Shown here: piece by piece, positions 3,760 through 50,152 of the stretch
How positions within the stretch are numbered: position 1 is the first letter of the stretch
How the letters are laid out: each line of letters opens with the position of its first letter
Virus genome (UHGV): UHGV-0038492
Direction: 5' to 3' (one strand)
From: a virus
DNA: 64,000 nucleotides
Position numbers and translations under genes: made by a program
The notes under the pieces: generated by a model
Database searches by the model: none
Told to the model about the DNA's origin: nothing
The model's input: the letters and a program-made list of their open reading frames with translations, nothing else

Positions 3760-6700
3760 TTAATCGCGAATGATTACCGCCTGCACTTTATTGTTGGTGT
3801 CGATAAACGACATTACGCGCTCCTTGTTAAGATAAGGAGGTATCGGTAACGCAGCGTAATCCGCCAGGTTGTTATTAAACTCGGTTGCCACTAGCGCATT
3901 AAGCGTTTCGGGGTCTGAGCTTGTCCCGGCCAATTCCATAACACGTACACGATTTAACGAGGAGTAGTTGCTGATATAATCCAACAGCGTACCGTAGAGT
4001 TTATTCCCGGTTATGCTGTCCGCCGTAGAGCGGATATTGGCACGCACTTCGTCCTCATAAAGTCCCCCTAATCCGTAGTAAATAGGGGTGTACGGATCGT
4101 TAACGATAGGCGCGAGGTTGAACCCGGTTAAACGGTCGGTCAGCGAGATTTTCTGCGTAGTACCACCTGCCGCCGTACAGCTTACGTATTTATCTGCCGC
4201 AGACAAATACACCACAATGGTGTAAACAGTACCTGCTAAGGTCAGCGTTGCGTTAAACGTTAATTCGTTATTCGCACCACGCGTGTGGGTAAATGACACG
4301 TCAGGTTGTAACGTACTCCACGGTGCTGGGGTAACACGTTTGGTCGGCGTGAAGCCTAACACCACAGATCTCCCGTTACCGAAGTTTAAACCAAACCCGG
4401 CGTAACAATACTCACCGTTACTGTCGGTTAAACGATAACCACGGGTGATAAGTAACGACAATCGCATAAACTCGTCATCGGTATTTTTCCAGCAACCCAG
4501 GACGGTTTCTAGCACCGTACCGGTTTTTGCGTTGCTTTCGGTTTCCCAACTGACACGCATCCCCGCATTGTTAAATACCGGGAACAGGTTGTGGATAAAT
4601 CCGTGAACGTTATCACTTACCCCTTTCGCATCAAACACCCACTTCGACGCAAGCTGGTCGTATTTCACACCATCGAGTGCTTTATATTCGTCACCAACCA
4701 CATAACGCCAGTCTGCTTCGCCACGCGCAACCGCTTGAAGTCCAGAAGCCCAGCAGGGCGCACCTACTGTTAAATTGCTTAACCCCAGCACTGCGCGCGA
4801 AGCAGAACGCTGAATGTGTGCGTTGTCATTGGCGATGTGGTCTTTCAGCTCACGGAAATCACCTAACCGTGTCACGTTACGTAGTTCAGTAACGAACACT
4901 TCAGAAAGGTCGTTAATACCGATCAGCCCCACGCGCGTCATGGTATCCGTTTCAGCCTGACTGTAGCTGTCGTGAATAATGTACTTCGCTTTGTTATCGA
5001 CAATGTCAACAAAAATCCCTGCGTAAACTTCCTTATTCAGATTTGGGAAACGTTCAGTGACGTTAACCGACATCAACGGCACGTCGTACGTTTCACCGCC
5101 AATGAAATACGTGGAAGCAGGAAGTGTCACCAGGATATTGTCTTTAACCGTAACGTCGATTAAGTCGTTACCGGACTTACCAAAGCGAATAATGTCAACG
5201 CGCGCACCCGAGTCAACCCCGCCGACGGTGTTCTCCAAATTTTCAATCTGGGAAGTCTGCGCCATCACCACACTACTATCGAGTGCTAAAGTGGCATCAT
5301 CCACATCCAGACCGAATTTAATCAGACCCCGTTTCGTGGTGTCTGCGTTTTCAACACCGAACACAGAAGACGGGTGTTGGTGAACCTTCGGTGAGTATTT
5401 GTCTAACTCAGTCTGTTGTGCAACAGAAATCGGCAGGTCGAGGTCCGGGGTATTCGCAACGTTACCTAAACCAAAGGTAATTTTGTCGATAGTGACCGAA
5501 CTGGTAAGCTGCATCTCGTTGATGTACGACTTGGCAGCAACCAACTTACCGGTAAACTCTGCGTCCAGTTTTTCAATTAGCGCAGGAGTCGCCGCGAGGT
5601 TTTCAGCCGTACCAAACTCGTCAGTCAACTGCCAACATGCTAACGTCGTGACGTCATTGGCAACCGGAAGGATAAACGTTGCGACAAACGGCGATGCTTT
5701 AATCCCGCTACCCGTAAGTTCCACGGTAGACGTCGACGCACCGTAGAACAGTCCTGTACCGCCTGCGGTATTACCCGGCAAATACGGCCCGACCGTAGTG
5801 GGGTCTAAGAGCTTCTTACCACGCCACAACAGTCCACGGTCATCGGGGTATAGCACAAGCTGGTTACCGCCTGCTTGTAACGTAACAGGGTTATTACCCA
5901 CGTTAACATCGGTGGAGCCTTGACCAATGAACTTAATGGATTTCGGATCAACGACGAACTGGGCACCTAAACGTTTTTCGTCAACTACACCAGGGGCCTT
6001 TTTGATGGTGACGTAGTTTCTGCTGTGGGAAGACTGGATACTGACCCTATCTGCAACGTTATTGATAAATCTCTTGAAGTGATAACGGTTTTCCAGTGCT
6101 TCTAACTCGGCATCCATGTTGTCGAAATTGACACGCGCACTGTAGGTTTTCCCGTTTACCGTAACGATAACGTCAAAAAGATTACCGGTTCGTTTCATCT
6201 GGAAACGTAACGTGAAATCACCATCAGGTATCACCGGGTCGGGTGCTTTGGAGATATAACGGACTTGTGGTACTGTACCGACGCCATATCCGCTAAGCGA
6301 CACTTCGATAGAAAGGCTATTCCCCCAGAGTGAGCCCTCCAACTCGACAAACTTACCAGAGTCGGTGCCCGGATTCTCGTAGAATCGCATCTGTACCGCA
6401 CCGACCGGTGAGTTATCTCCTGCAACTCTTGTACCCGTTACAATAAAGTCGATATCTTGTAAATCAGCGGGAACGCCGTTAAAATAACATCCGAATCCGT
6501 TTCTAGTTCCGCTGTAGCGAAGCGCCCCGTGGTATCTAATTCCGTCCGAAACGTAATATTCGCTAAAATACTGACTAACGTATTTCGACATCGACACAGG
6601 GTCGACTTCGGTAGTAAATGACGTAAAGCCAGGAAGCGTCGTAATCGTGCCGTTAGCGTTCTTGCTCGCCGATTCACGAAGCAGTTTTCTCTGGGCGGTT

Positions 6701-8085
6701 AGCGTTGCCTGTGTTGGGTATTTAGCGTTAACGTAGTCCGTTAACTGTTGCTTGGTTTTCCCGTAGGTTAACGCTGCATCGGACGCAATGCCGTTTAACT
6801 CTAACGCACGAATCGGACCCCAGGTGTCAGCGTGTGGGTTGTCTTTACGAGTGACGTGTTCGTGCGCAGGTGCGTTACGATAGAGCTGTTCTACTAACTG
6901 ATGGTACTTAACGATTAGCTGATAAACGTCATTACTTACGTCAGCTTCTGGCGCACCAGGTAACGCAAGGAATTGTGCATAATCGTTTTCAGCCGCCCAC
7001 CAGTTTAAGTTAACGTTGGTTTTGTATTTCAGCCACTTCGCAACATCCGTTTTGGTGTAACCTGCTGAGAATTCGTCTGGCGGTGTGTCAACGTTAAAGG
7101 TGTAGTCCATGGACTGTTTGTTGGTCGTCACCTCGATAACGTATACACCGTTACCCGGTTGACGGACAACGCTAAACGTTAACTCGCCTTTTAATTCGTC
7201 GTCGGTCAAACCGTTGATTAACGTATAATCGTAATCGGTCGAACCACTGCCTAACGCAACGGTCAGACGTAGGAAGATCTTACGTTGTTTTAATTGGAGA
7301 CGAAGGATACTTGCACCACCATTCGCGTAGCACAGCATCCAATCGATTTGTTCGTTCGGGTTAATACTCCCCATGTTCGGAAAAATAGCCGGGATACGGT
7401 ATTTCATCGACAGGGAATATTCATTTAACGTGGTGGTTTTGTACGTAACGGAGAAACGACGTTTAGCGGTATTGTAGGTATACCCACCTTTGTTGTCGTA
7501 CGTTGCGTACTGTTCAGACGTGATAACCGTACCATTAGCACGATGTTCGATATCTAACGTGTTACGCGCAATCGGGTCTACCCGATTCACCACGTTACCT
7601 AACGAATCACCTAAGCCCGCAATGGCCTGCATTAATTCCAGTTCGCCTTTCCAGTTTTCCCAGTCGAACTGAATGTCGACCGGTGGAAAGTAAACATCGC
7701 CGATAACGGTATCCCATTGACACGCAGACGGGTATTTATCTTTATTGAGTTCGCGTTCTGCGGTAATCTGTTCTTGGGTCGCTTCACCACAACCTACGGC
7801 GTGGTAATCTACCGTGAAATTCGATTTGTATTTGTCGTTAACAATCCAAATCATCCCGTGCACGAGATAGGCTGTGCGCAACATACCGGTCTCGTACGGG
7901 TGTGTAATAACGTAATCGTCGCCTAAGGTCAGTATTTTGCCGCCGCTCTTGACCACCAGGGATGTGGTGAAAAAAGGGGCGTGGGCAGGTACCAACATTC
8001 GGTACTTCGTACCAATGACGGCGACCGCTTCACCGGTTATTTTATTCCCCGGTTCTTTGAAGTGTGGGTCTAGGACGACAGCCAT
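3760..8085 (-). CDS. large virion structural protein (1441 aa), putative tail fibre / tail spike component
   Basis: Complete 1441-aa ORF in track; its stop lies 14 nt upstream of the start of the downstream tail-fibre gene (same strand); function inferred from size and neighbourhood only. Confidence 0.75.
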   Translation of the reverse strand: MAVVLDPHFKEPGNKITGEAVAVIGTKYRMLVPAHAPFFTTSLVVKSGGKILTLGDDYVITHPYETGMLRTAYLVHGMIWIVNDKYKSNFTVDYHAVGCGEATQEQITAERELNKDKYPSACQWDTVIGDVYFPPVDIQFDWENWKGELELMQAIAGLGDSLGNVVNRVDPIARNTLDIEHRANGTVITSEQYATYDNKGGYTYNTAKRRFSVTYKTTTLNEYSLSMKYRIPAIFPNMGSINPNEQIDWMLCYANGGASILRLQLKQRKIFLRLTVALGSGSTDYDYTLINGLTDDELKGELTFSVVRQPGNGVYVIEVTTNKQSMDYTFNVDTPPDEFSAGYTKTDVAKWLKYKTNVNLNWWAAENDYAQFLALPGAPEADVSNDVYQLIVKYHQLVEQLYRNAPAHEHVTRKDNPHADTWGPIRALELNGIASDAALTYGKTKQQLTDYVNAKYPTQATLTAQRKLLRESASKNANGTITTLPGFTSFTTEVDPVSMSKYVSQYFSEYYVSDGIRYHGALRYSGTRNGFGCYFNGVPADLQDIDFIVTGTRVAGDNSPVGAVQMRFYENPGTDSGKFVELEGSLWGNSLSIEVSLSGYGVGTVPQVRYISKAPDPVIPDGDFTLRFQMKRTGNLFDVIVTVNGKTYSARVNFDNMDAELEALENRYHFKRFINNVADRVSIQSSHSRNYVTIKKAPGVVDEKRLGAQFVVDPKSIKFIGQGSTDVNVGNNPVTLQAGGNQLVLYPDDRGLLWRGKKLLDPTTVGPYLPGNTAGGTGLFYGASTSTVELTGSGIKASPFVATFILPVANDVTTLACWQLTDEFGTAENLAATPALIEKLDAEFTGKLVAAKSYINEMQLTSSVTIDKITFGLGNVANTPDLDLPISVAQQTELDKYSPKVHQHPSSVFGVENADTTKRGLIKFGLDVDDATLALDSSVVMAQTSQIENLENTVGGVDSGARVDIIRFGKSGNDLIDVTVKDNILVTLPASTYFIGGETYDVPLMSVNVTERFPNLNKEVYAGIFVDIVDNKAKYIIHDSYSQAETDTMTRVGLIGINDLSEVFVTELRNVTRLGDFRELKDHIANDNAHIQRSASRAVLGLSNLTVGAPCWASGLQAVARGEADWRYVVGDEYKALDGVKYDQLASKWVFDAKGVSDNVHGFIHNLFPVFNNAGMRVSWETESNAKTGTVLETVLGCWKNTDDEFMRLSLLITRGYRLTDSNGEYCYAGFGLNFGNGRSVVLGFTPTKRVTPAPWSTLQPDVSFTHTRGANNELTFNATLTLAGTVYTIVVYLSAADKYVSCTAAGGTTQKISLTDRLTGFNLAPIVNDPYTPIYYGLGGLYEDEVRANIRSTADSITGNKLYGTLLDYISNYSSLNRVRVMELAGTSSDPETLNALVATEFNNNLADYAALPIPPYLNKERVMSFIDTNNKVQAVIIRD

Positions 8086-8152
8086 TATCTACTCCTATAG
8101 TCCGTGGGCGTCGAGTTCATACTATGACTTGAATCTATTGAGGAAAAGAGCT

Positions 8153-9415
8153 GTGACTACTGCTTATCAAGTGCGGCCTGACAGCGCTTTTGGCTTCTCT
8201 CGTGAGACCCGTACCTGGGGAGCCATCGACGTCACGCAACCCTTAGAAACCTTGTGTTCTGATTACCATATTTTCGAAGTCGGTCTGAGTGCGCTTGGTA
8301 GAGACTATACGTTAATTAGCCAATATCACCTCGCTGACTTACAAAACCGTACCGATACATTACAAGACTGGCTGAATGAAAAAGCCGGTGTGGTTATCTC
8401 TGCATTAAAAGACGGTTTACCGACGTTAGAGTTTGATTGGGCACACTACCAATCGATTAATGCCGACGTTCCAGTAGAAACCTACCTGTGTCCTCCCGGT
8501 TATCATTACAGTCAAGATTTCAGTACAGACGATGCTGACGACGTTGTGGTGGTGTGTGAAGATAAATGGAAAGACAAATACCGTAACGGGGTGTTGTACA
8601 ACATCAACGGACAGTGGGTGCCGCATCAATCCGATACTGTTGGCGTACGTTTACCGGGTGCGGGTAAGATAGTACGTCGTGCGGGGACACCGGATATCGG
8701 GTGTATGGTCTTTAGTAAATTGGGGAATGTTAAGACGTACCCCATTGCTAATTTGACCTTAAACAAACTCGACACCACCCGTGACTATTATTCCACGTTA
8801 ATGATTTCTTTACCGGAATCTATTACAGATAAAACCGTGGGGTTTGTTATCGGGGGACTGATACACTGGTTACCGGTTACTGGGTACTTCTCCGACAAAG
8901 CCATTATGGTGTCGCTACCGAACTTTGACGTTGCGCGTACTGTGTTAGAAACCCGACGTTATTACGACTGGGACAGCATTGGTGTGGGTGATTTGTCATC
9001 ACCGACCAACGTACAGCGTATCCGTAACCCAGAAACGTTAAAGGCGCTTTTAACCCACGAGTCGTCGTTTATCTTTACGGTGGATAATCCGTATCTGGAA
9101 GAAGAAGTTGTGGGGGTTTCTCACAACGCTATCTGGGGACGTTTATACCTTAAAGATCCTACCGACCCTGATGGGGAAAAACAACTGGGGTATCTGTTAA
9201 ACCGCTTCGGTAAAACCGTTGCCTATTGGCCGACGTGGGAAGAAGGGGAATGGGTATTTAACACCACGGAGTTTGACAGTCAAAACTACGTGTTCCGTGA
9301 AGCCCGTTGGTATAACCAGAAGAAAATTAACGATGCACAGGCAATCGTAGGGCCTTTCGGTCCCTGGGAAAAAGTCTATTTAGAAATGCATCGTTTCCGT
9401 GCAAGAAAAAAATAA
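8153..9415 (+). CDS. hypothetical protein (about 420 aa)
   Basis: Track ORF 7937-9415 trimmed to the first start codon clear of the divergent minus gene: GTG at 8153 preceded by GAGGAAAAGAG (alternative TTG at 8138); followed by a hairpin terminator. Confidence 0.6.
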   Translation: MTTAYQVRPDSAFGFSRETRTWGAIDVTQPLETLCSDYHIFEVGLSALGRDYTLISQYHLADLQNRTDTLQDWLNEKAGVVISALKDGLPTLEFDWAHYQSINADVPVETYLCPPGYHYSQDFSTDDADDVVVVCEDKWKDKYRNGVLYNINGQWVPHQSDTVGVRLPGAGKIVRRAGTPDIGCMVFSKLGNVKTYPIANLTLNKLDTTRDYYSTLMISLPESITDKTVGFVIGGLIHWLPVTGYFSDKAIMVSLPNFDVARTVLETRRYYDWDSIGVGDLSSPTNVQRIRNPETLKALLTHESSFIFTVDNPYLEEEVVGVSHNAIWGRLYLKDPTDPDGEKQLGYLLNRFGKTVAYWPTWEEGEWVFNTTEFDSQNYVFREARWYNQKKINDAQAIVGPFGPWEKVYLEMHRFRARKK

Positions 9416-9465: not shown

Positions 9466-9675
9466 TTAGTCTTTTTTGTAGACGATCGCGTTACCGTGCA
9501 GTTTGTTGTTACCGGAAATACCGATAACTTTAAACGCTTCACCGCCGATCTTTTCAGCTTCGACAGCCAGCTTAGCAGTAACGTCGTCTACGGTGTCACC
9601 GAAAGCACTTACGTTACCAATTTTCTTGAACTCTTCAGGAATGTGTTCAGCAGAAGAGAATTCTTTAATAGCCAT
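9466..9675 (-). CDS. DUF1471 (YhcN / BhsA-like) domain protein, 69 aa, no signal peptide
   Basis: C-terminal FKVIGISGNNKLHGNAIVYKK matches the conserved end of enterobacterial DUF1471 proteins (BhsA-like ...TLHGTAVIYK, recalled from memory); N-terminus is hydrophilic with no hydrophobic leader. Confidence 0.6.
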   Translation of the reverse strand: MAIKEFSSAEHIPEEFKKIGNVSAFGDTVDDVTAKLAVEAEKIGGEAFKVIGISGNNKLHGNAIVYKKD

Positions 9676-9875: not shown

Positions 9876-10841
9876 TTAGCGCGGGCCTGAAGTTGGACCA
9901 TGTACACCGTCGTGGATGTGTACGCTGAAGGTAATACCGGAAATCACCGCATCCTTAACTGTAAAGACGCCCACACCTTCACCCGTACCACCGTATTTGA
10001 AGTTCTTAGCAACTTCCAAATTACCGGTGAACATCGCCTCATTACCTTCTTGCTTAAAGTTCGGCGTTTTATACGTTGTGGAACCAGAGGCTTCGGTTAG
10101 CCACGTTTCTGTTTTAAAGGTAACCGATTTCGACGCTTCGGTATTCCGAACTTCGCATTTCTCATTAATCGTTTTCGTTTCCAGGTTAATCGAACGTTTT
10201 GCGTAAATGAACGCATCTTCTTTGTTGATGTTCACCTTCGAAAGCATCGCGTTCTCAAAACCTAGATCGTCTTCCACCGAGTTAATGTAATACTTATTCC
10301 CTTTATGGTCAACGCACTGCCACGATCCGTTAGCGTTATCGAATTGGAATAACCACGCCGCTTTCTCCCCGTTCACCATGCTTGTTCTTAGGGTAACGTG
10401 TTTGTCAATCGTTGAGACGTTTAACACATACGCGTTCGACAAGTCATCCGCCATCTGGTTTTCAGGGTCAGCAGACCACGCGTAAACCGCATCCTCTAAT
10501 CGCTTAACGTTAGCGAAATTCAAATCAATCCAAAAATAAATATCGGTTTGCCCTAGACGTAGCAAGATAACGTAATCTTCACGCTTAACGTCTGGGGAAT
10601 TAATTCGGTTGGAATTAAACTTCCACCACTTTGCAGTAATCGTGTTACCGGTTTTAATCGTTAGGTTGTCGGTAGCACCCCCGGCTTCGTGTACCTTTTC
10701 AGCGGTTGAGGAAACCGATTGTACAACGGTAGGGTTCGCAAAGTTGGTTTCAATGGGAATAACACTCACCCGATCCGTACCACGAGGTTTATCTTCCGCG
10801 ACGATACCAATCGAGAAAAAGTCAACGCTGGATTTCTCCAT
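9876..10841 (-). CDS. hypothetical protein (321 aa)
   Basis: Track ORF; minus-strand ATG preceded by AAGGAA with 7-nt spacer. Confidence 0.65.
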   Translation of the reverse strand: MEKSSVDFFSIGIVAEDKPRGTDRVSVIPIETNFANPTVVQSVSSTAEKVHEAGGATDNLTIKTGNTITAKWWKFNSNRINSPDVKREDYVILLRLGQTDIYFWIDLNFANVKRLEDAVYAWSADPENQMADDLSNAYVLNVSTIDKHVTLRTSMVNGEKAAWLFQFDNANGSWQCVDHKGNKYYINSVEDDLGFENAMLSKVNINKEDAFIYAKRSINLETKTINEKCEVRNTEASKSVTFKTETWLTEASGSTTYKTPNFKQEGNEAMFTGNLEVAKNFKYGGTGEGVGVFTVKDAVISGITFSVHIHDGVHGPTSGPR

Positions 10842-10895
10842 TAGGTCGTTCCTTAGATCGGAAATGTAATCAGATATATTTTACTTAAGTGAATA

Positions 10896-10920
10896 GGGGC
10901 TGAACTCGCACTTCAGCCCC
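10896..10920. other. 9-bp stem-loop (GGGGCTGAA / TTCAGCCCC) in the divergent intergenic region
   Basis: Perfect 9-bp inverted repeat 10896-10904 / 10912-10920 with 7-nt loop; no adjacent T-run, so more likely a regulatory or processing structure than a terminator. Confidence 0.4.
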
Positions 10921-10973
10921 TATGGGCACGTTTCTTTCGAAACGGAGTTACCACGTGATTAGGAGACAGACCA

Positions 10974-11051
10974 ATGTCTACTGAGAAGAAAAGCGGATTG
11001 AACGAAGTAATCGTACTGTTCAAACGCGACAACCCGGCTATTCCTCGGTAA
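10974..11051 (+). CDS. small ORF (25 aa, MSTEKKSGLNEVIVLFKRDNPAIPR)
   Basis: ATG 10974 preceded by AGGAGA with 7-nt spacer; too short for the track; real-gene status uncertain. Confidence 0.2.
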   Translation: MSTEKKSGLNEVIVLFKRDNPAIPR

Positions 11052-11229
11052 TCATAGTATTACTTAAAATTTACAGATTATCCCTTTATTCTGCTACTCG
11101 GGATACCGGTAGGGGGTAGGGGGCAATATGTATACGGATATAAATAGCGGAGGTATACGTAGTATACCGACATACTCTTCCCAGAGGAACGTAGTGACTT
11201 CCTTATTCCTTTTTAGGAGAATAAACCCC

Positions 11230-11964
11230 ATGAGAGAATTGATTGACGATATCTTTACCAATACCAGTTTAGAACTTTCTTCTACGGTGGTTAACGATCT
11301 AATAGGACAACCGTATCCTGCTAAGTTAATGTCAGTCGGTACCATTAAACCTGAAGATTATCCAGACAATGACATTATCGACTGTATAATTGACGAATAC
11401 ACGATAGCCAGTTACGCCAGTCGGGTCTTCTTTGTTCTTAATAGCGAAACCAGTGTCATTTTAATCTATAAGTTGATTAGTGGTGCTGAACTTGAAGTTG
11501 TAGCCGACCACATTCGTCTTATTGCGAGCACGATTGATGATTTCGCTGATGCGCTTTTTGGAGACAGTTGGCCTTTGCAACCCCTCTTCTCTTACTTCCC
11601 TCTATTTAAACATGGAATAGGGTTAATCCGACATGCAGAAAACCTTCCCGATAACGTAGAGCTATCGCTGCTTGGACCCGGCATCGATCTTTATCCATTA
11701 GAAGACGAGGGCACGCTATATGGTTTGCGCATTTATGTTTCTGTGTTAGAGGGATACCGCGTTATTGAATTGATTGCATCAGATTTAGCAAAACAGATCC
11801 CTGAAGCAGAAACGATTTCTAAAGCCACCCACCTGGTTGAGTTTAACCCAGCCGATCCGTTATTAAAATATCACAAAGAAATTGACATTCGTAAAATCGC
11901 CACGGTAAGAGGGTGGGGTTGTGTTGAGATTACGAATAATAACCTGTTACTAGTACGTAAGTAA
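11230..11964 (+). CDS. hypothetical protein; divergent member of the GW...LLF C-terminal-module paralogue family
   Basis: Track ORF 11128-11964 trimmed to ATG 11230 preceded by AGGAGAATAAA; C-terminus IATVRGWGCVEITNNNLLLVRK aligns with the module of the next three genes. Confidence 0.6.
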   Translation: MRELIDDIFTNTSLELSSTVVNDLIGQPYPAKLMSVGTIKPEDYPDNDIIDCIIDEYTIASYASRVFFVLNSETSVILIYKLISGAELEVVADHIRLIASTIDDFADALFGDSWPLQPLFSYFPLFKHGIGLIRHAENLPDNVELSLLGPGIDLYPLEDEGTLYGLRIYVSVLEGYRVIELIASDLAKQIPEAETISKATHLVEFNPADPLLKYHKEIDIRKIATVRGWGCVEITNNNLLLVRK

Positions 11965-11987
11965 AAAACCTAAAAGGAGAATATACC

Positions 11988-12542
11988 ATGTTTCAAACTG
12001 AACTGAAAAATGAAATTATCCAATCCCTTGAAAAAGGCGTAGGCGAACATTTCTTTGTCTGTCCTTATACTGTACTGACCAATACCATTATTCAGCCAGG
12101 CGCGATGATAGTAGGGGTGAGTGTACAAGCTGTGGAGGAAACCCCGCTGCGTCGCAACATCACTCGTAAAAACCATATTCCATTTAGAACGGGTTTTACA
12201 GATTACTTTCAGAGCTTACTGAAAGATAGCGTTTGGAAAACAGGTAGTTTCTTCCACGAAGGGAAAACATCCACGCTGGTTTATAAAGAGAATACCAAGT
12301 ATCTGGTTGATTTTCTCTTAGCGCGTCAATACGCTTTCTTTCCTTCACCCACCGGTCTCACCCCAGACAATCCGAGTAAGCTGTTAAACCAAGACGAAGC
12401 CGAAGCACTGCGTGCACAACTAAGAAAAGAAGGTTGTGATGTCGATGACTGGGAAACGTTGATCGCAGTCGCTAAAGCACACGGTTGGTATACCGTGCGT
12501 AATCTCGGTCAGCAATTGTTGTTCTTAGCTTACCCTGCTTAA
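11988..12542 (+). CDS. hypothetical protein (184 aa); GW...QLLF module family
   Basis: Track ORF; RBS AAAGGAGAA; C-terminus IAVAKAHGWYTVRNLGQQLLFLAYPA. Confidence 0.75.
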   Translation: MFQTELKNEIIQSLEKGVGEHFFVCPYTVLTNTIIQPGAMIVGVSVQAVEETPLRRNITRKNHIPFRTGFTDYFQSLLKDSVWKTGSFFHEGKTSTLVYKENTKYLVDFLLARQYAFFPSPTGLTPDNPSKLLNQDEAEALRAQLRKEGCDVDDWETLIAVAKAHGWYTVRNLGQQLLFLAYPA

Positions 12543-12571
12543 GTAACGAAAAACCCTAAAGGAGAGTAAAG

Positions 12572-13723
12572 ATGCGAAATATTATTTCTAAACCAGGACA
12601 TGCCAAGATCCTAAAAGAACTGATGGACAGATGCTATAATCAGACTTGGCCTCTGCCAAGCTTAACCATCGAGTCTTCATTACAACGCGAGTTGTTTGGT
12701 TATAACTTGGGCTGCTGTGTACTGAGTGAATACGATGAGATTATCGCGCCTGTCGATGTTTGTACTTACGATGAAGAAATTGAAGGTTACCAGTTCGCGG
12801 TTTACTCAAATTGTGGACTAAATTACCGTAAACTCGTTGTTAGAGAAAAGAGTAGCGGCAGGAAGATTATGTTTAAGGTCTTCCCAAGTGGTAAAGTCAG
12901 CAATTTATGTTTTCAGCTTGAGCAAGTGCCGTTTCACGGTGCAGCTATTTTAACTAAAGCAGAACGTGCGTTATTAAGCGGGTTAATCGGCTTTGAAGCA
13001 AAAACCATCAAAGTAGAACAGGAACTCACACAAAACGATTTCGGCTCGACCTGGTACGAAAGTTTCTTCCGCTACGAAATATTAAGTGATAAAGCTATCA
13101 AACTCACTTACCGTTCTACCGACGATCTCGTTTACCATATTTTAGTTAGCGGTGAACCCCACCTGATTATTGAAGACAAAGGAGAAAATCAAATGTCTGC
13201 CTTAAAAGACGAATTAGCCCAATTCATTCGTGATGTTGAAGAGAAAAGCAAGAGCGATCACATTTTCTCACAACGTTATCCTGAACTTATTGACGAAACC
13301 ACCGATAGTGTCGTCGACGGTATACGCATTTTCCCAAGTGGTCTTGCAATTTACCGACTGCCTAGCGTTAACCAGCTTAAAGTCATGGAAATGCTAAAAG
13401 ACGTTTTAGCAGAAGCGGGTTGGGAATATCGCTTCGATTGCAATTTCGAAGGGATGGCGTTATTCGTTACAAAGAAAAATTATACGTTGTCAATCGATCT
13501 ACCTAAAAGTCAATATTACAGTTTCTTCCCGAAAGCGGATGACCGCACTGAAAAAGAACCTGCATTGTTACTTGATGCGGCAGAATCCAATACGCTAATG
13601 ATGCGTCTGCGGATGGTTGACAAAAAATTAAATACCGGTCATCTAACGACGATCGGTAAAGATTACGGTTGGAAATCTGTCGAACCGTACGGCAGTCAGC
13701 TGCTGTTTGTTGCTGACCTTTAA
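12572..13723 (+). CDS. hypothetical protein (383 aa); GW...QLLF module family
   Basis: Track ORF; RBS AAAGGAGAG; C-terminus TTIGKDYGWKSVEPYGSQLLFVADL plus a degenerate internal copy (LAEAGWEYRFDCNFEGMALFV). Confidence 0.75.
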   Translation: MRNIISKPGHAKILKELMDRCYNQTWPLPSLTIESSLQRELFGYNLGCCVLSEYDEIIAPVDVCTYDEEIEGYQFAVYSNCGLNYRKLVVREKSSGRKIMFKVFPSGKVSNLCFQLEQVPFHGAAILTKAERALLSGLIGFEAKTIKVEQELTQNDFGSTWYESFFRYEILSDKAIKLTYRSTDDLVYHILVSGEPHLIIEDKGENQMSALKDELAQFIRDVEEKSKSDHIFSQRYPELIDETTDSVVDGIRIFPSGLAIYRLPSVNQLKVMEMLKDVLAEAGWEYRFDCNFEGMALFVTKKNYTLSIDLPKSQYYSFFPKADDRTEKEPALLLDAAESNTLMMRLRMVDKKLNTGHLTTIGKDYGWKSVEPYGSQLLFVADL

Positions 13724-13749
13724 TAAGTGAAACTACACTTTCTCTAACT

Positions 13750-13775
13750 GCCGCGCTTTAGTCGCGGCTTTTGTT
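13750..13775 (+). terminator. intrinsic terminator (GCCGCG / CGCGGC stem + TTTTGTT)
   Basis: 6-bp GC stem 13750-13755 / 13763-13768, 7-nt loop, T-rich tail; between genes ending 13723 and starting 13791. Confidence 0.55.
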
Positions 13776-13790
13776 AAGAAGGAAATAGAA

Positions 13791-14564
13791 ATGAAAGTCC
13801 AATTAGACGACCTCTTTAAAACTGAACCGTATATGATTAAAGGTTCACTGGCTTCACTGTTGTTAGATGATAGATTTCATCGAACGCTCCAATTACAATC
13901 GGTCGAATCCGCACCAACAGAAGACGCGAGTCTTTATCAACGTATCACTTACACACGCGGAGAATATCGGCGATATAAACCTGATACGCTAACCGTTAAG
14001 CTCTGGCAAGTGGCCACAGGCAAAGTATTAACTTATCGCACTGTTGGTCTATACTACGTTGAACGTGCCTACGCGTGGTTAGAAGAAGTTAAAGAAATGG
14101 ATTACGACCGCTTAAGCAAAAGACTGCGCGATAACAACGCCAGTTTACCGATACGCAATTATTTCTCCACAATTGAAAATAGTCGTTGTTTCGTTTCACG
14201 CGAATCCATGATATTGCCTGGGGCTGATGTTCAGACGACACTAAAAGATGTGGTTGTGAGGAAAATCTTTCATGAATCTGAACACGTTGGATTTCGTATC
14301 TATTTAACGCACAAGAGGCCATTTACCGTGATTCATGTTGTTACCGTACCCGAAGGCTCATCAGTCGTTCGTGAGCTTCCTGACGCACGTGATCGTAGTC
14401 CTAATGAGCCACTTTACTTAATGTCAGGAACAAAATCAGAATCTTTGATGTCCCGTTACAGCATGGTTGATGTTGTTGATACTGCTATGAAGTTAGGTTG
14501 GAAAGAAGTACAGCAGCACGGCAAACAATTGCTGTTTATCGCAGATGTAAATCTCAATAACTAA
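13791..14564 (+). CDS. hypothetical protein (257 aa); GW...QLLF module family
   Basis: Track ORF; RBS AAGAAGGAAA; C-terminus VDTAMKLGWKEVQQHGKQLLFIADVNLNN. Confidence 0.75.
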   Translation: MKVQLDDLFKTEPYMIKGSLASLLLDDRFHRTLQLQSVESAPTEDASLYQRITYTRGEYRRYKPDTLTVKLWQVATGKVLTYRTVGLYYVERAYAWLEEVKEMDYDRLSKRLRDNNASLPIRNYFSTIENSRCFVSRESMILPGADVQTTLKDVVVRKIFHESEHVGFRIYLTHKRPFTVIHVVTVPEGSSVVRELPDARDRSPNEPLYLMSGTKSESLMSRYSMVDVVDTAMKLGWKEVQQHGKQLLFIADVNLNN

Positions 14565-14576
14565 AGAGGTGGTACC

Positions 14577-15155
14577 GTGTACCGATTAATAGAAATGAGA
14601 AAAGACGTTTGGTTGGAAAACCTCGTCGATGGGGAGCTCGAGGGAATAGAGCTTTCCTTACCAGAGAGAGCGGACACGGTATTGGCCTTTCTGGTAAAAC
14701 AGGCAGACCGTGAACCGGTAGGAATCTTCACTGTGGACTATAAAGATCCACGAGGAATTCATTTACGGAACATTTGCAGTGGTTTGGAAAGCTTACCGGC
14801 TAACCCTTTCTTAAACTACGCAAAACGTAAACTCCAACCGGGACAACACCTCTGGGTAACGTTATCGCCTGACGTTAGAATCATACGTGACGATTACTCG
14901 GCGTTTGTACAGGCAACGAAAGTCAGTCTGTATAACCCGAACGCAGAGCGTACCGATATGCCGTTTATAATTACCTTAGAAGACGATGGAACGCAAGAAG
15001 GTATTGAGGCAATTACGGAATTAGTAAACTCTTATCCGGTTGCCACTATCGAGTTAGAAAACCCAAGCCGACTACCGTTGGGTGACCTGCTCGAATGGAT
15101 CGAACTGAATACAGAATTCTTAATCAGTTCGCGTCAGTATCGATTCGATGTATAA
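14577..15155 (+). CDS. hypothetical protein (192 aa)
   Basis: Track ORF, GTG start preceded by AAGAGGTGG; followed by a strong terminator. Confidence 0.7.
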   Translation: MYRLIEMRKDVWLENLVDGELEGIELSLPERADTVLAFLVKQADREPVGIFTVDYKDPRGIHLRNICSGLESLPANPFLNYAKRKLQPGQHLWVTLSPDVRIIRDDYSAFVQATKVSLYNPNAERTDMPFIITLEDDGTQEGIEAITELVNSYPVATIELENPSRLPLGDLLEWIELNTEFLISSRQYRFDV

Positions 15156-15159
15156 CAAC

Positions 15160-15190
15160 GGTGGGGTGTAAGCCCCACCTTTTATTTTTT
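15160..15190 (+). terminator. intrinsic terminator (GGTGGGG / CCCCACC stem + TTTTATTTTTT)
   Basis: 7-bp stem 15160-15166 / 15173-15179, 6-nt loop, immediately followed by a T-run. Confidence 0.8.
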
Positions 15191-15195
15191 GTTCG

Positions 15196-15226
15196 CTGAC
15201 ATTAAAAATAATCTCAGATATATATT
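15196..15226 (+). promoter_or_regulatory. sigma70-like promoter candidate (-35 CTGACA, 17-bp spacer, -10 TATATA; also contains TATATTAC)
   Basis: CTGACA 15196-15201, 17-nt AT-rich spacer, TATATA 15219-15224; lies between the terminator at 15160-15190 and the first gene of the secreted-protein cluster; the polymerase that would use it is unknown. Confidence 0.35.
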
Positions 15227-15284
15227 ACCTAGGGGAGAGTTAAGATTAACTCTTTTACTTGTTAACCCCACGAGGAGCAAAACA

Positions 15285-15746
15285 ATGAAAATCTTCACTT
15301 CCTTTTTAATCGCCCTTTTCGCAATCGGATTCAATACTGCAAACGCTGCAATCAATAGTTGGGAACAATTACTGAACCCAGGTCAGGCTGTTTACGAAAT
15401 TGAAGACATCGCCGGAAACGGACTGTCTATCAACTGTGACACTGAAACTGCGAATCGCAAATTTTACGGTCGGATGGTTTGGTATTACGGGGAACCTGTA
15501 GGCGCAACTAACGCTGAAGATAACACGATGGATATCGTCGTAAATGGCAAAACCTACAACATCCCTACGGTGGATGGTAGTGACAAAGCAGAACACGCTT
15601 GGGTGGCTTTCGTTAATGCTATCGGTAACGCCAAAACTTTCAGTGTGAATATCAATGGTAACGAAGCCGCTAACTTTACCGTAGAAGGCGAACGTCTGTC
15701 TGAAACTTTCTTCCAGAACTGTGGACACACCCGTCCTAACAAATAA
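15285..15746 (+). CDS. small secreted protein 1 (153 aa precursor, Sec signal peptide)
   Basis: Track ORF 15189-15746 trimmed to ATG 15285 preceded by GAGGAG; N-terminus MKIFTSFLIALFAIGFNTANAA is a typical signal peptide; two Cys in the mature part. Confidence 0.7.
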   Translation: MKIFTSFLIALFAIGFNTANAAINSWEQLLNPGQAVYEIEDIAGNGLSINCDTETANRKFYGRMVWYYGEPVGATNAEDNTMDIVVNGKTYNIPTVDGSDKAEHAWVAFVNAIGNAKTFSVNINGNEAANFTVEGERLSETFFQNCGHTRPNK

Positions 15747-21480: not shown

Positions 21481-21587
21481 TTGAGGGTATTCTGTTAACA
21501 CTTGGGTCGTTGTGGATTATTGGGAAATCCCTCAACTGGCTGATTAAAAAGTACGGATGGGCTTTCAAAGGCTCTACGCACAGTTAA
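21477..21587 (+). CDS. micro membrane peptide (36 aa, MIEGILLTLGSLWIIGKSLNWLIKKYGWAFKGSTHS)
   Basis: ATG overlaps the preceding stop (ATGA); one predicted TM helix; too short for the track. Confidence 0.3.
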   Translation: MIEGILLTLGSLWIIGKSLNWLIKKYGWAFKGSTHS

Positions 21588-21595
21588 GTTAGAAC

Positions 21596-21625
21596 CCCCT
21601 CCTGGGTAACTGGGAGGGCGTTTTA
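21596..21625 (+). terminator. weak hairpin terminator candidate (CCCTCC / GGAGGG + GTTTT)
   Basis: 6-bp stem with 10-nt loop and a short T-run. Confidence 0.3.
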
Positions 21626-21637
21626 CGAGGGAAAACC

Positions 21638-21766
21638 ATGACTGTTGTCAATACTACCAATGCTGCAATTGGCGCTTTATACAACGCGGAACTAACATGG
21701 GGTGCGGGATTTATTACCGTACTGCTTCTTGCCGCAGCCGCTTTTATCATTGGACGTTGGTTTTAA
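21638..21766 (+). CDS. micro membrane peptide (42 aa, MTVVNTTNAAIGALYNAELTWGAGFITVLLLAAAAFIIGRWF)
   Basis: ATG preceded by GAGGGAAAACC; one predicted TM helix. Confidence 0.35.
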   Translation: MTVVNTTNAAIGALYNAELTWGAGFITVLLLAAAAFIIGRWF

Positions 21767-21799
21767 TTTCAATCTTTTTGCGTCTGTAAGGTCTGATAA

Positions 21800-24777: not shown

Positions 24778-24783
24778 TACTTG

Positions 24784-24822
24784 CCCCTAATCCAATCGGA
24801 TTAGGGGTACTTTCATTTATTC
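24784..24822 (+). terminator. hairpin terminator, CCCTA...TAGGG family (CCCCTAATCC / GGATTAGGGG)
   Basis: 10-bp stem 24784-24793 / 24798-24807, 4-nt loop, moderately T-rich tail. Confidence 0.55.
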
Positions 24823-24840
24823 CCCTAAAGGAGCAAAGGT

Positions 24841-26326: not shown

Positions 26327-26360
26327 CCCTACTCCTCCGGGAGTAGGGTTATTCTTTTTT
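26327..26360 (+). terminator. intrinsic terminator, CCCTACTCC family
   Basis: 9-bp stem CCCTACTCC (26327-26335) / GGAGTAGGG (26340-26348), 4-nt loop, followed by TTATTCTTTTTT. Confidence 0.8.
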
Positions 26361-26378
26361 CCATCTTAGGAGTATTAA

Positions 26379-35297: not shown

Positions 35298-35302
35298 TAA
35301 AC

Positions 35303-35333
35303 ACCCTAGCTTCGGCTAGGGTTATTTTATTTT
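35303..35333 (+). terminator. hairpin terminator, CCCTA...TAGGG family (ACCCTAGC / GCTAGGGT, TTCG loop)
   Basis: 8-bp stem 35303-35310 / 35315-35322, followed by TATTTTATTTT. Confidence 0.75.
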
Positions 35334-35355
35334 AACCATTTTAGGAGCATATACC

Positions 35356-36288
35356 ATGTATTTGTACAAAAGTAAAAAAGTAAAAGGTATTAAAGACTGC
35401 CTTAGACAAATGGGGAGTCAGCATCTAGAAAATGTCATGGAAGAAAACCAAACAAAAGAAAATCCTGTCTCGAAATGGATAAAAAAGAATCGTAACCATT
35501 TAACCAATTCCTTTATACCCTACGACACTGAGTTAGGTCTCAAAGATCCACGTTCCCTTCACGCACAAACGTTGGCAATCGGGTGGCTATATGGCGGGGT
35601 TTCCTTAATATCCAACCAAGCACTTAGAGAACTTGTTTTCGAGACTGAGATGCCCAGTAAATTCCCTGAAGAATGGTTGGACTTTATACCCGCATGGACT
35701 GTGGCAATCGACGTAGGTAAAGAGGATGAGACTTTCTTTCTCGGCTATCGAAAAAATGGGAAGAGAAGGTTTATTATAATCGCTACAAATACTGATTACG
35801 GGTTAACAGAAGGAGTTACCACAATTGCCACTTGTTCGTTAGAGCTTCGTAGTGCAGGGAACGGGCTTGTGGAAATCGACTACGACGACGGTGTGGAGAA
35901 CGAACAAGAAAGGATGTTATGGTTATCTCTGGCCAAAGCCGCCACATCGATGATATTTCTGTGCACGCTAATCCCGCCTAATTACAGGGAGTCTTTTAAT
36001 GATATTAAGTTCAGGGAAATCAAAAAGAACGGTAGTATTAGTTACGACGTTAAACCGCGAGAACGTGATGTTAAGGTAGATATCACACCAGGACAAGTAA
36101 AATATCTAAAAGGATTTAACACCGACTTGAAAGCCATGCAGGGTATCAAACACGCCAAAGCTGCGCACATTCGTCGTGCCCACTGGCGTAGATATTGGGT
36201 TGGCCCAAGAAACGGTGAAAGAAAAAGAAAACTTTGCTGGATTCCACCGACATTTGTCCGAGGCTACGTACCCCACACGCAAGACTAG
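35356..36288 (+). CDS. hypothetical protein (310 aa); HIRRAHW-motif paralogue A
   Basis: RBS AGGAG; C-terminus KAAHIRRAHWRRYWVGP...CWIPPTF. Confidence 0.7.
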   Translation: MYLYKSKKVKGIKDCLRQMGSQHLENVMEENQTKENPVSKWIKKNRNHLTNSFIPYDTELGLKDPRSLHAQTLAIGWLYGGVSLISNQALRELVFETEMPSKFPEEWLDFIPAWTVAIDVGKEDETFFLGYRKNGKRRFIIIATNTDYGLTEGVTTIATCSLELRSAGNGLVEIDYDDGVENEQERMLWLSLAKAATSMIFLCTLIPPNYRESFNDIKFREIKKNGSISYDVKPRERDVKVDITPGQVKYLKGFNTDLKAMQGIKHAKAAHIRRAHWRRYWVGPRNGERKRKLCWIPPTFVRGYVPHTQD

Positions 36289-36298
36289 GAGAATTATA

Positions 36299-37183
36299 AT
36301 GTTAAGACGCAGAATTTATGGAGATACGCTTCGACGTATTAGTGAAGCTATAGAGACTGCACACAAAGACTTGTTTGGTCTGAAAGAAGATCGGTTTCTA
36401 ACGTTTGTCAGGGAACACAAGAGACAACTCCCCGTAACCTTTCTGCCCGTTAACGACCCAACGTACCGTGAGTTCGGCACCACCAAACAGGTGCCGTATT
36501 CTATTCGCCAGTCGTTAGGTTTGGGTTGGCAATACGCAGGTATTGAAATTATCTCTGATAACGAGTTGATGGGATTACTTGCAGACACAGAACGTTTAAC
36601 GGATATTCCGTACGCGTGGATTGAAGCCATCCCATCATTCACCTTTTCCGTGACTGTCAAGATTAATGAACTTCCTGCTACGCTCTTTATCGGTCGTCGT
36701 AAATTCGAAGGTGAAGAAGTATTGTTCGTTTTACGATGGGTGGAGATAAATCAGCGGCACTGTTGGACGACCAAGATTTATCGGTTCAACAGAAAGGCAG
36801 ATGACTTTGTTAGTTTAGAGCCTTACTTTGCTAACGAGTCAAAGGACGAGGAACTTCTGGATGAGGTACATATCGGTTTATATCTTTCCTCGCGGGTGAA
36901 GAAATCGGAACGCGAGAGACGGGAATACCGTGGTAGAACGACACGTTACGTACCTGATACAGAAATCCTTCCACGCAGAGAACCTGTCGTTGTTGACGTA
37001 AGTCCAGTACAACGCGAAGACTTAGAGAAACAACGCAGGGAAGGTAGGAGAATCTGTTTAACGCCGCATCGCGCAGCACACATACGCAGGGCACATTGGA
37101 AACGGGTCTGGTGTGGGCCAATGACAGGACCACGCTGGCAGGAGTGGCGATGGATTGCACCCACCTTTATATCCGGTTTTTAG
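36299..37183 (+). CDS. hypothetical protein (about 294 aa); HIRRAHW-motif paralogue B
   Basis: Track ORF 36176-37183 trimmed to ATG 36299 preceded by AGGAGAA; C-terminus RAAHIRRAHWKRVWCGP...WRWIAPTF; full-length similarity to paralogue A. Confidence 0.7.
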   Translation: MLRRRIYGDTLRRISEAIETAHKDLFGLKEDRFLTFVREHKRQLPVTFLPVNDPTYREFGTTKQVPYSIRQSLGLGWQYAGIEIISDNELMGLLADTERLTDIPYAWIEAIPSFTFSVTVKINELPATLFIGRRKFEGEEVLFVLRWVEINQRHCWTTKIYRFNRKADDFVSLEPYFANESKDEELLDEVHIGLYLSSRVKKSERERREYRGRTTRYVPDTEILPRREPVVVDVSPVQREDLEKQRREGRRICLTPHRAAHIRRAHWKRVWCGPMTGPRWQEWRWIAPTFISGF

Positions 37184-46261: not shown

Positions 46262-46300
46262 ACCCTACTCCTGTCTGGGAGTAGGGTATTTTCATTTTTT
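46262..46300 (+). terminator. intrinsic terminator, CCCTACTCC family
   Basis: 10-bp stem ACCCTACTCC (46262-46271) / GGAGTAGGGT (46278-46287), 6-nt loop, followed by ATTTTCATTTTTT. Confidence 0.8.
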
Positions 46301-46320
46301 ACCCTAAAGGAGAATTTACC

Positions 46321-49942: not shown

Positions 49943-50082
49943 CTGAAGAAGTTAAAGTAGAAACCGTTAAAGAAACTGACGAATTTGCAATCCCTGGCTT
50001 AGACCCGGAAGCGACCGTAGAGAAGGGTGCTGACCCAACTACGGAAGACGATAACTGCTCAGGCGGGGCTTGCAAAATTTAA
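49939..50082 (+). CDS. small acidic ORF (47 aa, ends ...DDNCSGGACKI)
   Basis: ATG overlaps the preceding stop (ATGA); followed by a terminator hairpin; too short for the track. Confidence 0.3.
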   Translation: MTEEVKVETVKETDEFAIPGLDPEATVEKGADPTTEDDNCSGGACKI

Positions 50083-50090
50083 CAGTTCAC

Positions 50091-50130
50091 GGGGTGCTTA
50101 TGTAGCACCCCTAATCATTATTCTTTTTTT
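50091..50130 (+). terminator. hairpin terminator (GGGGTGCT / AGCACCCC)
   Basis: 8-bp stem 50091-50098 / 50104-50111; T-run TTCTTTTTTTG about 10 nt downstream. Confidence 0.6.
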
Positions 50131-50152
50131 GTTAATCTAATGGAGTTTTAGA

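Follow-up and report, generated by a model that had tools for sequence, protein, structure and literature searches.

Nucleus-forming jumbo phages transcribe their genomes with two RNA polymerases of their own, and outside phiKZ their cis-regulatory RNA and DNA are almost unexplored. The early promoters of jumbo phages are phage-specific AT-rich boxes of about 10 nt centred near -10 and the late motif of phiKZ is T(-3)ATG(+1) (PMC7598289), its middle promoter being marked by a TACT centred at -22 (PMC8244752). Abundant short RNAs are also produced by phiKZ from 5' untranslated regions (5'-UTRs) through premature termination (PMC10914365). The subject here is a single divergent gap, at positions 10842-11229, in a 64,000-nt stretch of the virus genome UHGV-0038492, referred to below as the window. 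The gap is a composite of two separable modules: a left one (10870-11051) with a candidate early promoter, a stem-loop and a 25-codon reading frame, and a right one (about 11053-11214) that holds an undescribed conserved non-coding element of SPN3US-like jumbo phages, here named the G-tract element.

The gap measures 388 nt and separates a baseplate assembly protein gene (9876-10841, - strand), a late structural gene recognized by its open reading frame (ORF) and its match to phrog_3216 'baseplate assembly protein' (E 4.9e-112), from a + strand gene at 11230-11964. A preliminary description, made from the letters of the window alone, had pointed to an unusually long divergent gap of about 390 bp, and this holds: the median intergenic gap in the window is 32 nt by crude gene calls, among which the nominally larger gaps are dropped long ORFs or poorly called window ends, not each of them checked. 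The baseplate gene has homologues in 290 jumbo-phage records and is of the phiKZ-like baseplate assembly type, and the window therefore derives from a nucleus-forming jumbo phage of the Chimalliviridae, in the group of SPN3US, Asesino, Caitlin and Phobos. At the DNA level the region around the gap matches Salmonella phage SPN3US and its relatives weakly (about 72% identity, in the baseplate gene only), and the corresponding gap in SPN3US and Asesino carries no annotation. The comparisons rest on five close relatives from IMG/VR (L002-L005 and L013; 93-100% amino-acid identity in the baseplate protein), nine distant ones from the same database (56-73%) and the named phages.

The G-tract element occupies 11082-11214 on the + strand and is defined by conservation, synteny and covariation. 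It opens with a pyrimidine leader, CCCUUUAUUCU (11082-11092), which is followed by a hairpin P1 (11094-11112), the G tract itself (11112-11123), a hairpin P2 (11127-11146), the motif CGGAGG (11148-11153), a hairpin P3 (11152-11168), the motif CCGAC (11167-11171), a hairpin P4 formed by GAGGAA and TTCCTT (11184-11204) and a tail, ATTCCTTTTT (11205-11214). The G tract lies within the repeat TAGGGGGTAGGGGG (11110-11123), which the preliminary description had correctly listed as a tandem TAGGGGG; what it had not seen is that the repeat is a small part of a far larger element (about 125 nt), and the features of the gap, which it had taken as one unit, fall into two. The repeat is the sole site on either strand of the 64 kb with two runs of at least four G within 3 nt, and runs of five G are under-represented in the window as a whole (17 and 14 found against about 39 and 41 expected).

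Conservation in related phages, which had been proposed as a check on the region, proved to be a striking feature of the right half of the gap: it is 97-100% identical among the close relatives, against only 86-98% for the baseplate DNA, and the features of the gap are thus not due to chance. Positions 11082-11207 are 96.8-100% identical as compared with 67-96% at the third codon positions of the baseplate gene. In L005 and L013, where the baseplate gene has diverged to 86% DNA identity and to 67-70% at third codon positions, the element differs from the window by four and one substitutions in 126 nt, respectively, whereas the third-position rate would predict about 40. The element is under a much stronger purifying selection than the adjacent structural gene.

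The architecture of the element is shared by SPN3US, STsAS, Asesino, Caitlin, Phobos, pEa_SNUABM_38, CR5 and all 14 IMG/VR relatives, down to a baseplate identity of 43%, and always at the syntenic site, divergent from the baseplate gene. It begins with TAC...TTTTTTAC(R) beside the baseplate start, followed by some 20-35 nt that are pyrimidine-rich in several lineages, and then by P1, GGGG(G)-N2-3-GGGGG, an optional P2, (A/G)CGGAG(G), P3 and (C)CGAC-N-UCCUU(U)AUUC; the window, L006, L007 and Asesino add the further hairpin P4 (GAGGAA-CGUAGUGAC-UUCCUU) and a second pyrimidine tail. In IMG/VR, a scan by pattern gave one match per contig or genome, other matches being chance hits in GC-rich DNA, and a regular-expression scan of the window found the copy in the gap only. 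A pattern scan of metagenomes returned mostly chance matches in GC-rich DNA and, beyond these, no more than near-duplicates of known members. In the more distant Chimalliviridae (SXP01, N1M2, Joad, PhiEaH1, SPLA10 and Deimos-Minion), for which the baseplate locus alone was examined, no element lies beside the baseplate gene; there synteny is lost, the neighbour is SbcC and the gap is about 20-80 nt.

The element corresponds to no described RNA family among those searched. The best match of the gap in Rfam 15 was BjrC68 (12.4 bits against a threshold of 39, E 3.4), Rfam gave no match at the element in six divergent loci, and neither a tRNA nor a tmRNA was found in the gap. A coding role was rejected, as the frames considered (an ORF from 11128 in frame with 11230, and a - strand ORF at 11078-11173) are broken in SPN3US and in other genera. 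Mimicry of 16S rRNA helix 45 was likewise set aside: the likeness of ACCGGUAGGGG in the window to what we take to be the 16S sequence, ACCGUAGGGG, is not common to other lineages and is probably a chance one. For a sponge of CsrA, of the CsrB/RsmZ type, the conserved motifs of the GGA type are too few, CGGAG being the only one; a GGA in the loop of P2 occurs in the window and SPN3US and is missing from L009, Caitlin, L011 and Phobos. As to a G-quadruplex, only two G runs are conserved, the first of them reduced to four G in Caitlin and in the Derbicusvirus phages (Phobos, pEa_SNUABM_38 and CR5), and G5-N2-G5 could in principle form one of two layers.

The element most likely acts as an RNA read rightward, since it is non-coding, P3 covaries, P1 is conserved in position, P4 shows compensation and the G-U pairs favour one strand. 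In P3 three of the four pairs show double changes, with 17 compensatory cells and a score that none of 500 shuffles reached; the pair types are GC/CG/UA, UA/AU/CG and GC/AU/UA, and slid controls scored far lower. In most of the 14 lineages examined the G tract is preceded, at a distance of 0-3 nt, by a P1 hairpin whose stem is unrelated in sequence between lineages and whose loop is often GNRA-like, and between Asesino and L007 the P4 stem changes in a compensatory manner from AAGGA/TCCTT to GAGGA/TCCTC. Compensatory base-pair changes, as expected of a structured RNA, are thus found in P3 and also in the 12-bp 5' hairpin of the left module (3/12 pairs, see below). The stems of the element are rich in G-U pairs, which become A-C mismatches on the opposite strand, and in 13 of 13 lineages the + strand folds better than the - strand by 5-21 kcal/mol. 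Action as single-stranded DNA is conceivable. The gap contains, in its right module, a probable RNA element.

Two candidate promoters could drive transcription into the element. The nearer one, the B motif CATAGTATTACTTAAAATTTACAG (11053-11076), directly precedes it, and its TACT-A-run-TTAC core is retained in all six members of the clade. In the distant relatives the corresponding TCATAYTA..TTTTTTACG abuts the baseplate start, with a TATG on the - strand about 18 nt before the baseplate ATG. Read rightward, B may be a promoter similar to the phiKZ middle type, with a predicted start near 11084, where invariance begins; on the opposite strand it reads (A/G)TA(C/G)TATGA, a plausible promoter of the phiKZ late type for the baseplate gene. 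As one strand resembles the middle and the other the late promoter of phiKZ, B may be a back-to-back promoter pair. The divergent promoter pair that had been postulated for this gap is likely, as a leftward TATG-type late promoter for the baseplate gene is plausible. Sequences similar to B precede - strand genes at two other places, 8117-8125 and around 38030. At the former site a near-palindrome, CATAGTATG/CATACTATG (8117-8127), lies between the divergent genes 3760-8085 (- strand) and about 8135-9415 (+ strand), provides either strand with a TATG and has the appearance of two late promoters of the TATG type placed back to back. In SPN3US, Asesino and L006 the next A-type early promoter (the type described below) is found 3.6-4.1 kb downstream of the gap, and the genes that follow the gap therefore need a promoter within it; the only conserved candidate there is the B motif.

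The farther promoter candidate belongs to the left module. The A-type motif TCAGATATATTTTACTTAAGTGA (10870-10892, + strand), with its AT-rich box at 10872-10885, was recognized by its recurrence and its invariance in the clade; in the alignment of the gap it appears directly left of a 12-bp hairpin as TCAGATATAT(T/A)TTACTTAAGTGA, unchanged in six close relatives. The box, AGATATATWTTACY, occurs twice in the window (at 10872 and 15216) and in every related phage locus fetched, always on the strand of the early genes, and the consensus of the group is TTTC-AGATATATWTTACY-TAR-GTGA. A repeated, conserved AT-rich box on the coding strand is what characterizes the early promoters used by the virion RNA polymerase (vRNAP) of jumbo phages, and a scan of the gap for sigma-70 promoters found nothing above chance. 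The core ATATATTAC also resembles what we take to be the early box of phiKZ. Because the motif fits the described early promoters of jumbo phages (PMC7598289), a rightward transcription start is predicted near 10889. Like those of phiKZ, the A-type promoters are short conserved AT-rich boxes placed before early gene blocks on the coding strand, with no sigma-70 signal, but their consensus is specific to this group and each copy is followed by a variable stem-loop, a feature not found described for phiKZ. The second copy in the window follows a canonical terminator, GGTGGGGTGTAAGCCCCACC + TTTTATTTTT (15160-15179); it lies at 15216-15229, with a 5' hairpin at about 15236-15257, ahead of the gene 15285-15746.

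The stem-loop that follows the first copy, ATAGGGGCTGAA/TTCAGCCCCTAT (10893-10904/10912-10923, + strand, 7-nt loop), is an inverted repeat with 100% complementarity, placed where the early transcript is predicted to begin; it had been noted before as a stem of 9 bp, and its length is 12 bp. Three of its 12 pairs show compensatory changes across six related genomes, each in different members (L003, L004 and L005/L013), with 97% of the cells paired and a covariation score exceeded by three of 500 shuffles. As three different pairs have changed on both sides and nearly all cells remain paired, the hairpin is under selection. It lacks the T run of an intrinsic terminator. All 14 distinct A-type copies in the window and the related loci (13 besides that at 10872) are followed by a hairpin, of a sequence specific to the site, in most cases starting 2-5 nt past GTGA and often accompanied by a short U run, and since this holds for every copy the 12-bp hairpin would be the stem-loop with which the early transcripts of this phage group normally open. 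A second small hairpin, CGTTTC-TTTC-GAAACG (10929-10944, + strand), appears in both the minimum free energy (MFE) and the centroid structure; its stem is unchanged in the relatives, its loop is variable and it is truncated in L005. The left module as a whole (10890-11055) has a folding z-score of -3.1. It is restricted to the clade of the window: in more distant relatives the entire cassette is absent and the B motif abuts the baseplate gene. Given this absence, the left module behaves as an inserted cassette of a promoter and a gene.

Taken together, a strand-specific early-promoter motif with its stem-loop, a probable small gene and a conserved structured element lend support to the regulatory hub that had been suggested for the gap, and the form that we favour, with about an even chance of being right, is that of a two-module control region in which the right module is the leader or attenuator RNA of the adjacent rightward operon. 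An early promoter of the vRNAP type would fire rightward from the left module, giving a transcript that opens with the 12-bp stem-loop, presumably a stabilizer, and encodes a 25-residue protein. The right module, an ancient structured element present as a single copy, would be read rightward, either by transcription that starts at the TACT-type B motif or by transcription that continues from the left module, and would form the 5' leader for the operon next to it, a set of paralogous genes of unknown function. Within this leader the G tract would pair with either of two near-identical pyrimidine stretches, CCCUUUAUUCU in the 5' leader or UUCCUUAUUCC in the 3' tail, and the purine motifs resembling Shine-Dalgarno (SD) sequences (CGGAGG and GAGGAA) with UCCUU motifs that resemble anti-SD sequences. 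Such alternative pairings would decide whether the weak terminal hairpin and its U-rich tail terminate transcription, leaving a short leader RNA, and whether the downstream ribosome-binding site is free.

Several properties of the predicted folds are consistent with such a switch. In the MFE fold of the window the leader CCCUUUAUUCU (11082-11092) pairs with GGGGUAGGGGG, with P1 at the tip, and when the leader is omitted from the folding its place opposite the G tract is taken by the near-identical tail UUCCUUAUUCC. Two alternative partners are predicted for GAGGAA: a UCUUCC on its upstream side and, on its downstream side, the UUCCUU of P4. The leader sequence UUUAUUCUGCUA is complementary to the SD region of the gene at 11230 and also to that of L005 and L013, which has another sequence; in the window the SD region, UAGGAGAAUAAA, matches the leader at 11085-11096 in 11 of 12 positions. 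The tail TTATTCCTTTTT resembles the tails of the real terminators of this phage. With the short 5'-UTR RNAs of phiKZ and other virulent phages detected by ONT-cappable-seq (PMC10914365) the element shares a promoter-proximal, structured and non-coding nature, a place before a phage gene, an end hairpin and U-rich tract that could release a short RNA, and conservation among related phages; it differs in being known from its sequence, in lacking any demonstrated sequence similarity to them, and in spanning several genera with fixed blocks. As in attenuators that work by alternative pairing, where a pyrimidine-rich anti-SD masks the SD, a repeated pyrimidine segment competes for one purine tract, motifs similar to SD are paired to UCCUU, and the leader is complementary to the downstream SD; the differences are that no ligand, protein or ribosome sensor has been identified, that the competing helices do not covary and that the element is sometimes uncoupled from the next gene.

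Other observations weigh against a leader that attenuates. A terminator scanner calls no intrinsic terminator in 10500-11600, P4 being weak (-4.9 kcal/mol, two G-C pairs), nor does it recognize a canonical one downstream of the element in the window, L011 or Caitlin. Relative to shuffled sequence the element has only a modest folding stability, with z-scores from -3.2 to +1.5 that average about -1. The long-range pairings of the G tract have no covariation support, their bases being invariant, and the changes of L005 in the G tract and the tail are not compensatory in the simplest register. The near-total conservation in the clade exceeds what a simple structured leader needs and hints at a constraint imposed by a protein or at the DNA level; the fixed blocks (G tract, CGGAG, CGAC and UCCUU) likewise suggest recognition by a protein, the ribosome or another nucleic acid. 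Phobos, pEa_SNUABM_38, CR5 and L011 have an A-type early promoter downstream of the element, which there is consequently not the leader of the next gene, and this uncoupling favours a stand-alone RNA or a role at the DNA level in these lineages. Nor did searches of the literature find a transcriptome, mapped transcript ends or a report of a non-coding RNA for SPN3US-like phages.

The same four lineages, in which the downstream genes have a promoter of their own, speak for the possibility that the right module is a stand-alone small RNA of about 110-160 nt that acts in trans, its single-stranded G tract, CGGAGG and anti-SD-like (C)CUCCUUUAUUC binding a protein or the ribosome-binding sites of mRNAs. 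The conservation of primary sequence in unpaired blocks fits this, as does an extra GC hairpin after the element in L009, Caitlin and L011, and the tail (C)CUCCUUUAUUC is complementary to the common ribosome-binding site of the phage, UAAAGGAG(AAU). The tail of Phobos and Caitlin also matches what is presumably the 3' end of 16S rRNA, ACCUCCUUA. We nevertheless consider a trans-acting RNA doubtful, for the element of the window, SPN3US, Asesino, L006, L012 and L014 leads directly into the next SD and start codon with no terminator recognized, the hairpins that follow it in L011 and Caitlin are not called as terminators, and neither a target nor a partner has been identified.

A role of the right module as DNA, either as an upstream region controlling the leftward TATG late promoter that serves the baseplate gene or as a platform for a phage protein, would account for the conservation of nearly every base within the clade, and it draws on a spacing common to all distant relatives, which have the start of the element some 25 nt upstream of a conserved - strand TATGA, itself about 18 nt before the baseplate start, with a similar (A/G)TA(C/G)TATG(A/T) ahead of other - strand structural genes. 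The manner in which the element varies makes this improbable, however: the stems covary and their sequences change freely, which fits folded single strands and not duplex binding sites, and the G-U pairs give A-C mismatches on the other strand. Moreover, L005 and L013 have lost the adjacent TATG with the element unchanged, and the late promoters of phiKZ are reported to need no conserved upstream sequence (PMC7598289).

Far less probable is an R-loop origin of replication, in which a transcript hybridized at G5-N2-3-G5 would prime replication. ColE1 RNA II, oriF and oriG of phage T4 and the mitochondrial CSB II are analogues of such a locus. As in CSB II and RNA II, a non-template G5-N2-3-G5 follows a promoter-like motif, here by about 30 nt, between hairpin flanks and in a single copy per genome, at the fixed site where divergent transcription meets; the likeness differs in being one of sequence, and not of hybrid formation or of a replication start. 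Clusters of GATC, the Dam site, occur in some lineages, with 3-4 sites within the element in L009, L010 (Caitlin) and L011 (locus about 3800-3990, - strand), placed as GATCGATC at the 5' end, GGATCT after the G tract and AGATC closing P2, but they are absent from the elements of the window and of the Phobos type. The GC skew at the gap merely follows gene orientation, neither an AT-rich unwinding element nor repeated binding sites were detected, and two G runs are weak evidence for an origin. Replication origins go unmentioned in a 2026 review of jumbo phages, and none appears to have been described for this phage family.

The 25-codon ORF of the left module (MSTEKKSGLNEVIVLFKRDNPAIPR, 10974-11051, + strand) stands where the preliminary description had placed it, with an AGGAGA (10961-10966) 7 nt before its ATG. 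It is kept in L002 and L004, and in L003, where 20 of the 25 codons differ, it has the same length, start and stop and an SD of its own (GGAGG). The differences between L003 and the window fall on the three codon positions as 12/7/14, with E4, K6, G8, E11, V12, L15, F16, P21, P24 and R25 conserved. L005 has lost the ORF by a clean deletion. In L013 (IMGVR_UViG_3300045988_113438, locus about 3800-3880, - strand) it is broken by a run of seven A, and removal of one A restores 25 codons (MSTKKESLNELLKRLKDYTPFSTFR); this interruption could be an assembly error, a pseudogene or slippage. The peptide had no tblastn match in 50,697 phage records. As it is retained as an ORF with a coding-like pattern of substitution, the ORF is probably a real but dispensable small early gene. 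That it is instead a leader peptide whose translation attenuates the downstream gene, as had been proposed and as its strong SD and its place upstream of a structured region and an operon might suggest, is scarcely credible, given that the ORF is specific to the clade and absent in L005 and all other genera, where the element and the operon persist, that the peptide is conserved beyond the needs of a pure ribosome sensor, and that its stop lies about 30 nt before the first conserved base of the element, with no predicted structure over the 3' end of the ORF and no alternative pairing linked to its translation.

The locus thereby provides an early-promoter consensus for the SPN3US, Erskinevirus and Derbicusvirus group, tied to an obligatory 5' stem-loop, a candidate early protein of 25 residues, and a single-copy non-coding element that is conserved across genera and absent from Rfam. 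Being so constrained, the element, at the boundary between late structural genes and a block of unknown function, probably has an important role, be it in regulation, RNA stability or conceivably replication, and it offers a well-defined target for mutagenesis or antisense knock-down.

The operon that follows the gap extends over 11230-15155 on the + strand and is closed by the terminator at 15160-15179; its first gene (11230-11964) has an AGGAGA at 11215-11220. Of the four consecutive genes in 11230-14564, no fewer than three (11988-14564) have in common a C-terminal domain of about 65 residues (...GW..V....QLLF.A), the function of which is not known; two of them match phrog_26772, and the first gene, 11230-11964, is similar by eye only. 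Members of this family follow the element in other genera too. On the other side of the gap, among structural genes, a 69-residue protein (9466-9675, - strand) carries a YdgH/BhsA/McbA-like domain (DUF1471; Pfam E 3e-10), a fold of bacterial periplasmic stress proteins, and the same gene is present in SPN3US. Farther along the window, the terminators at 24782-24840, 26327-26378, 46290-46320 and 50110-50150 have a common tail, (T)TATTC/TTTCATTT with a T run, and are followed by ACCCTAAAGGAG, the ribosome-binding site of the next gene; several of their stems share GGGAGTAGGG/CCCTACTCC. Crude gene calls leave further ORF-free stretches at 21481-21799 (319 nt) and 49943-50152 (210 nt). Finally, the stretch 35298-37183 holds two long + strand ORFs (35356-36288 and 36176-37183) that have about 110 nt in common but are read in different frames; this could be a frameshift, an intron or a mis-call.

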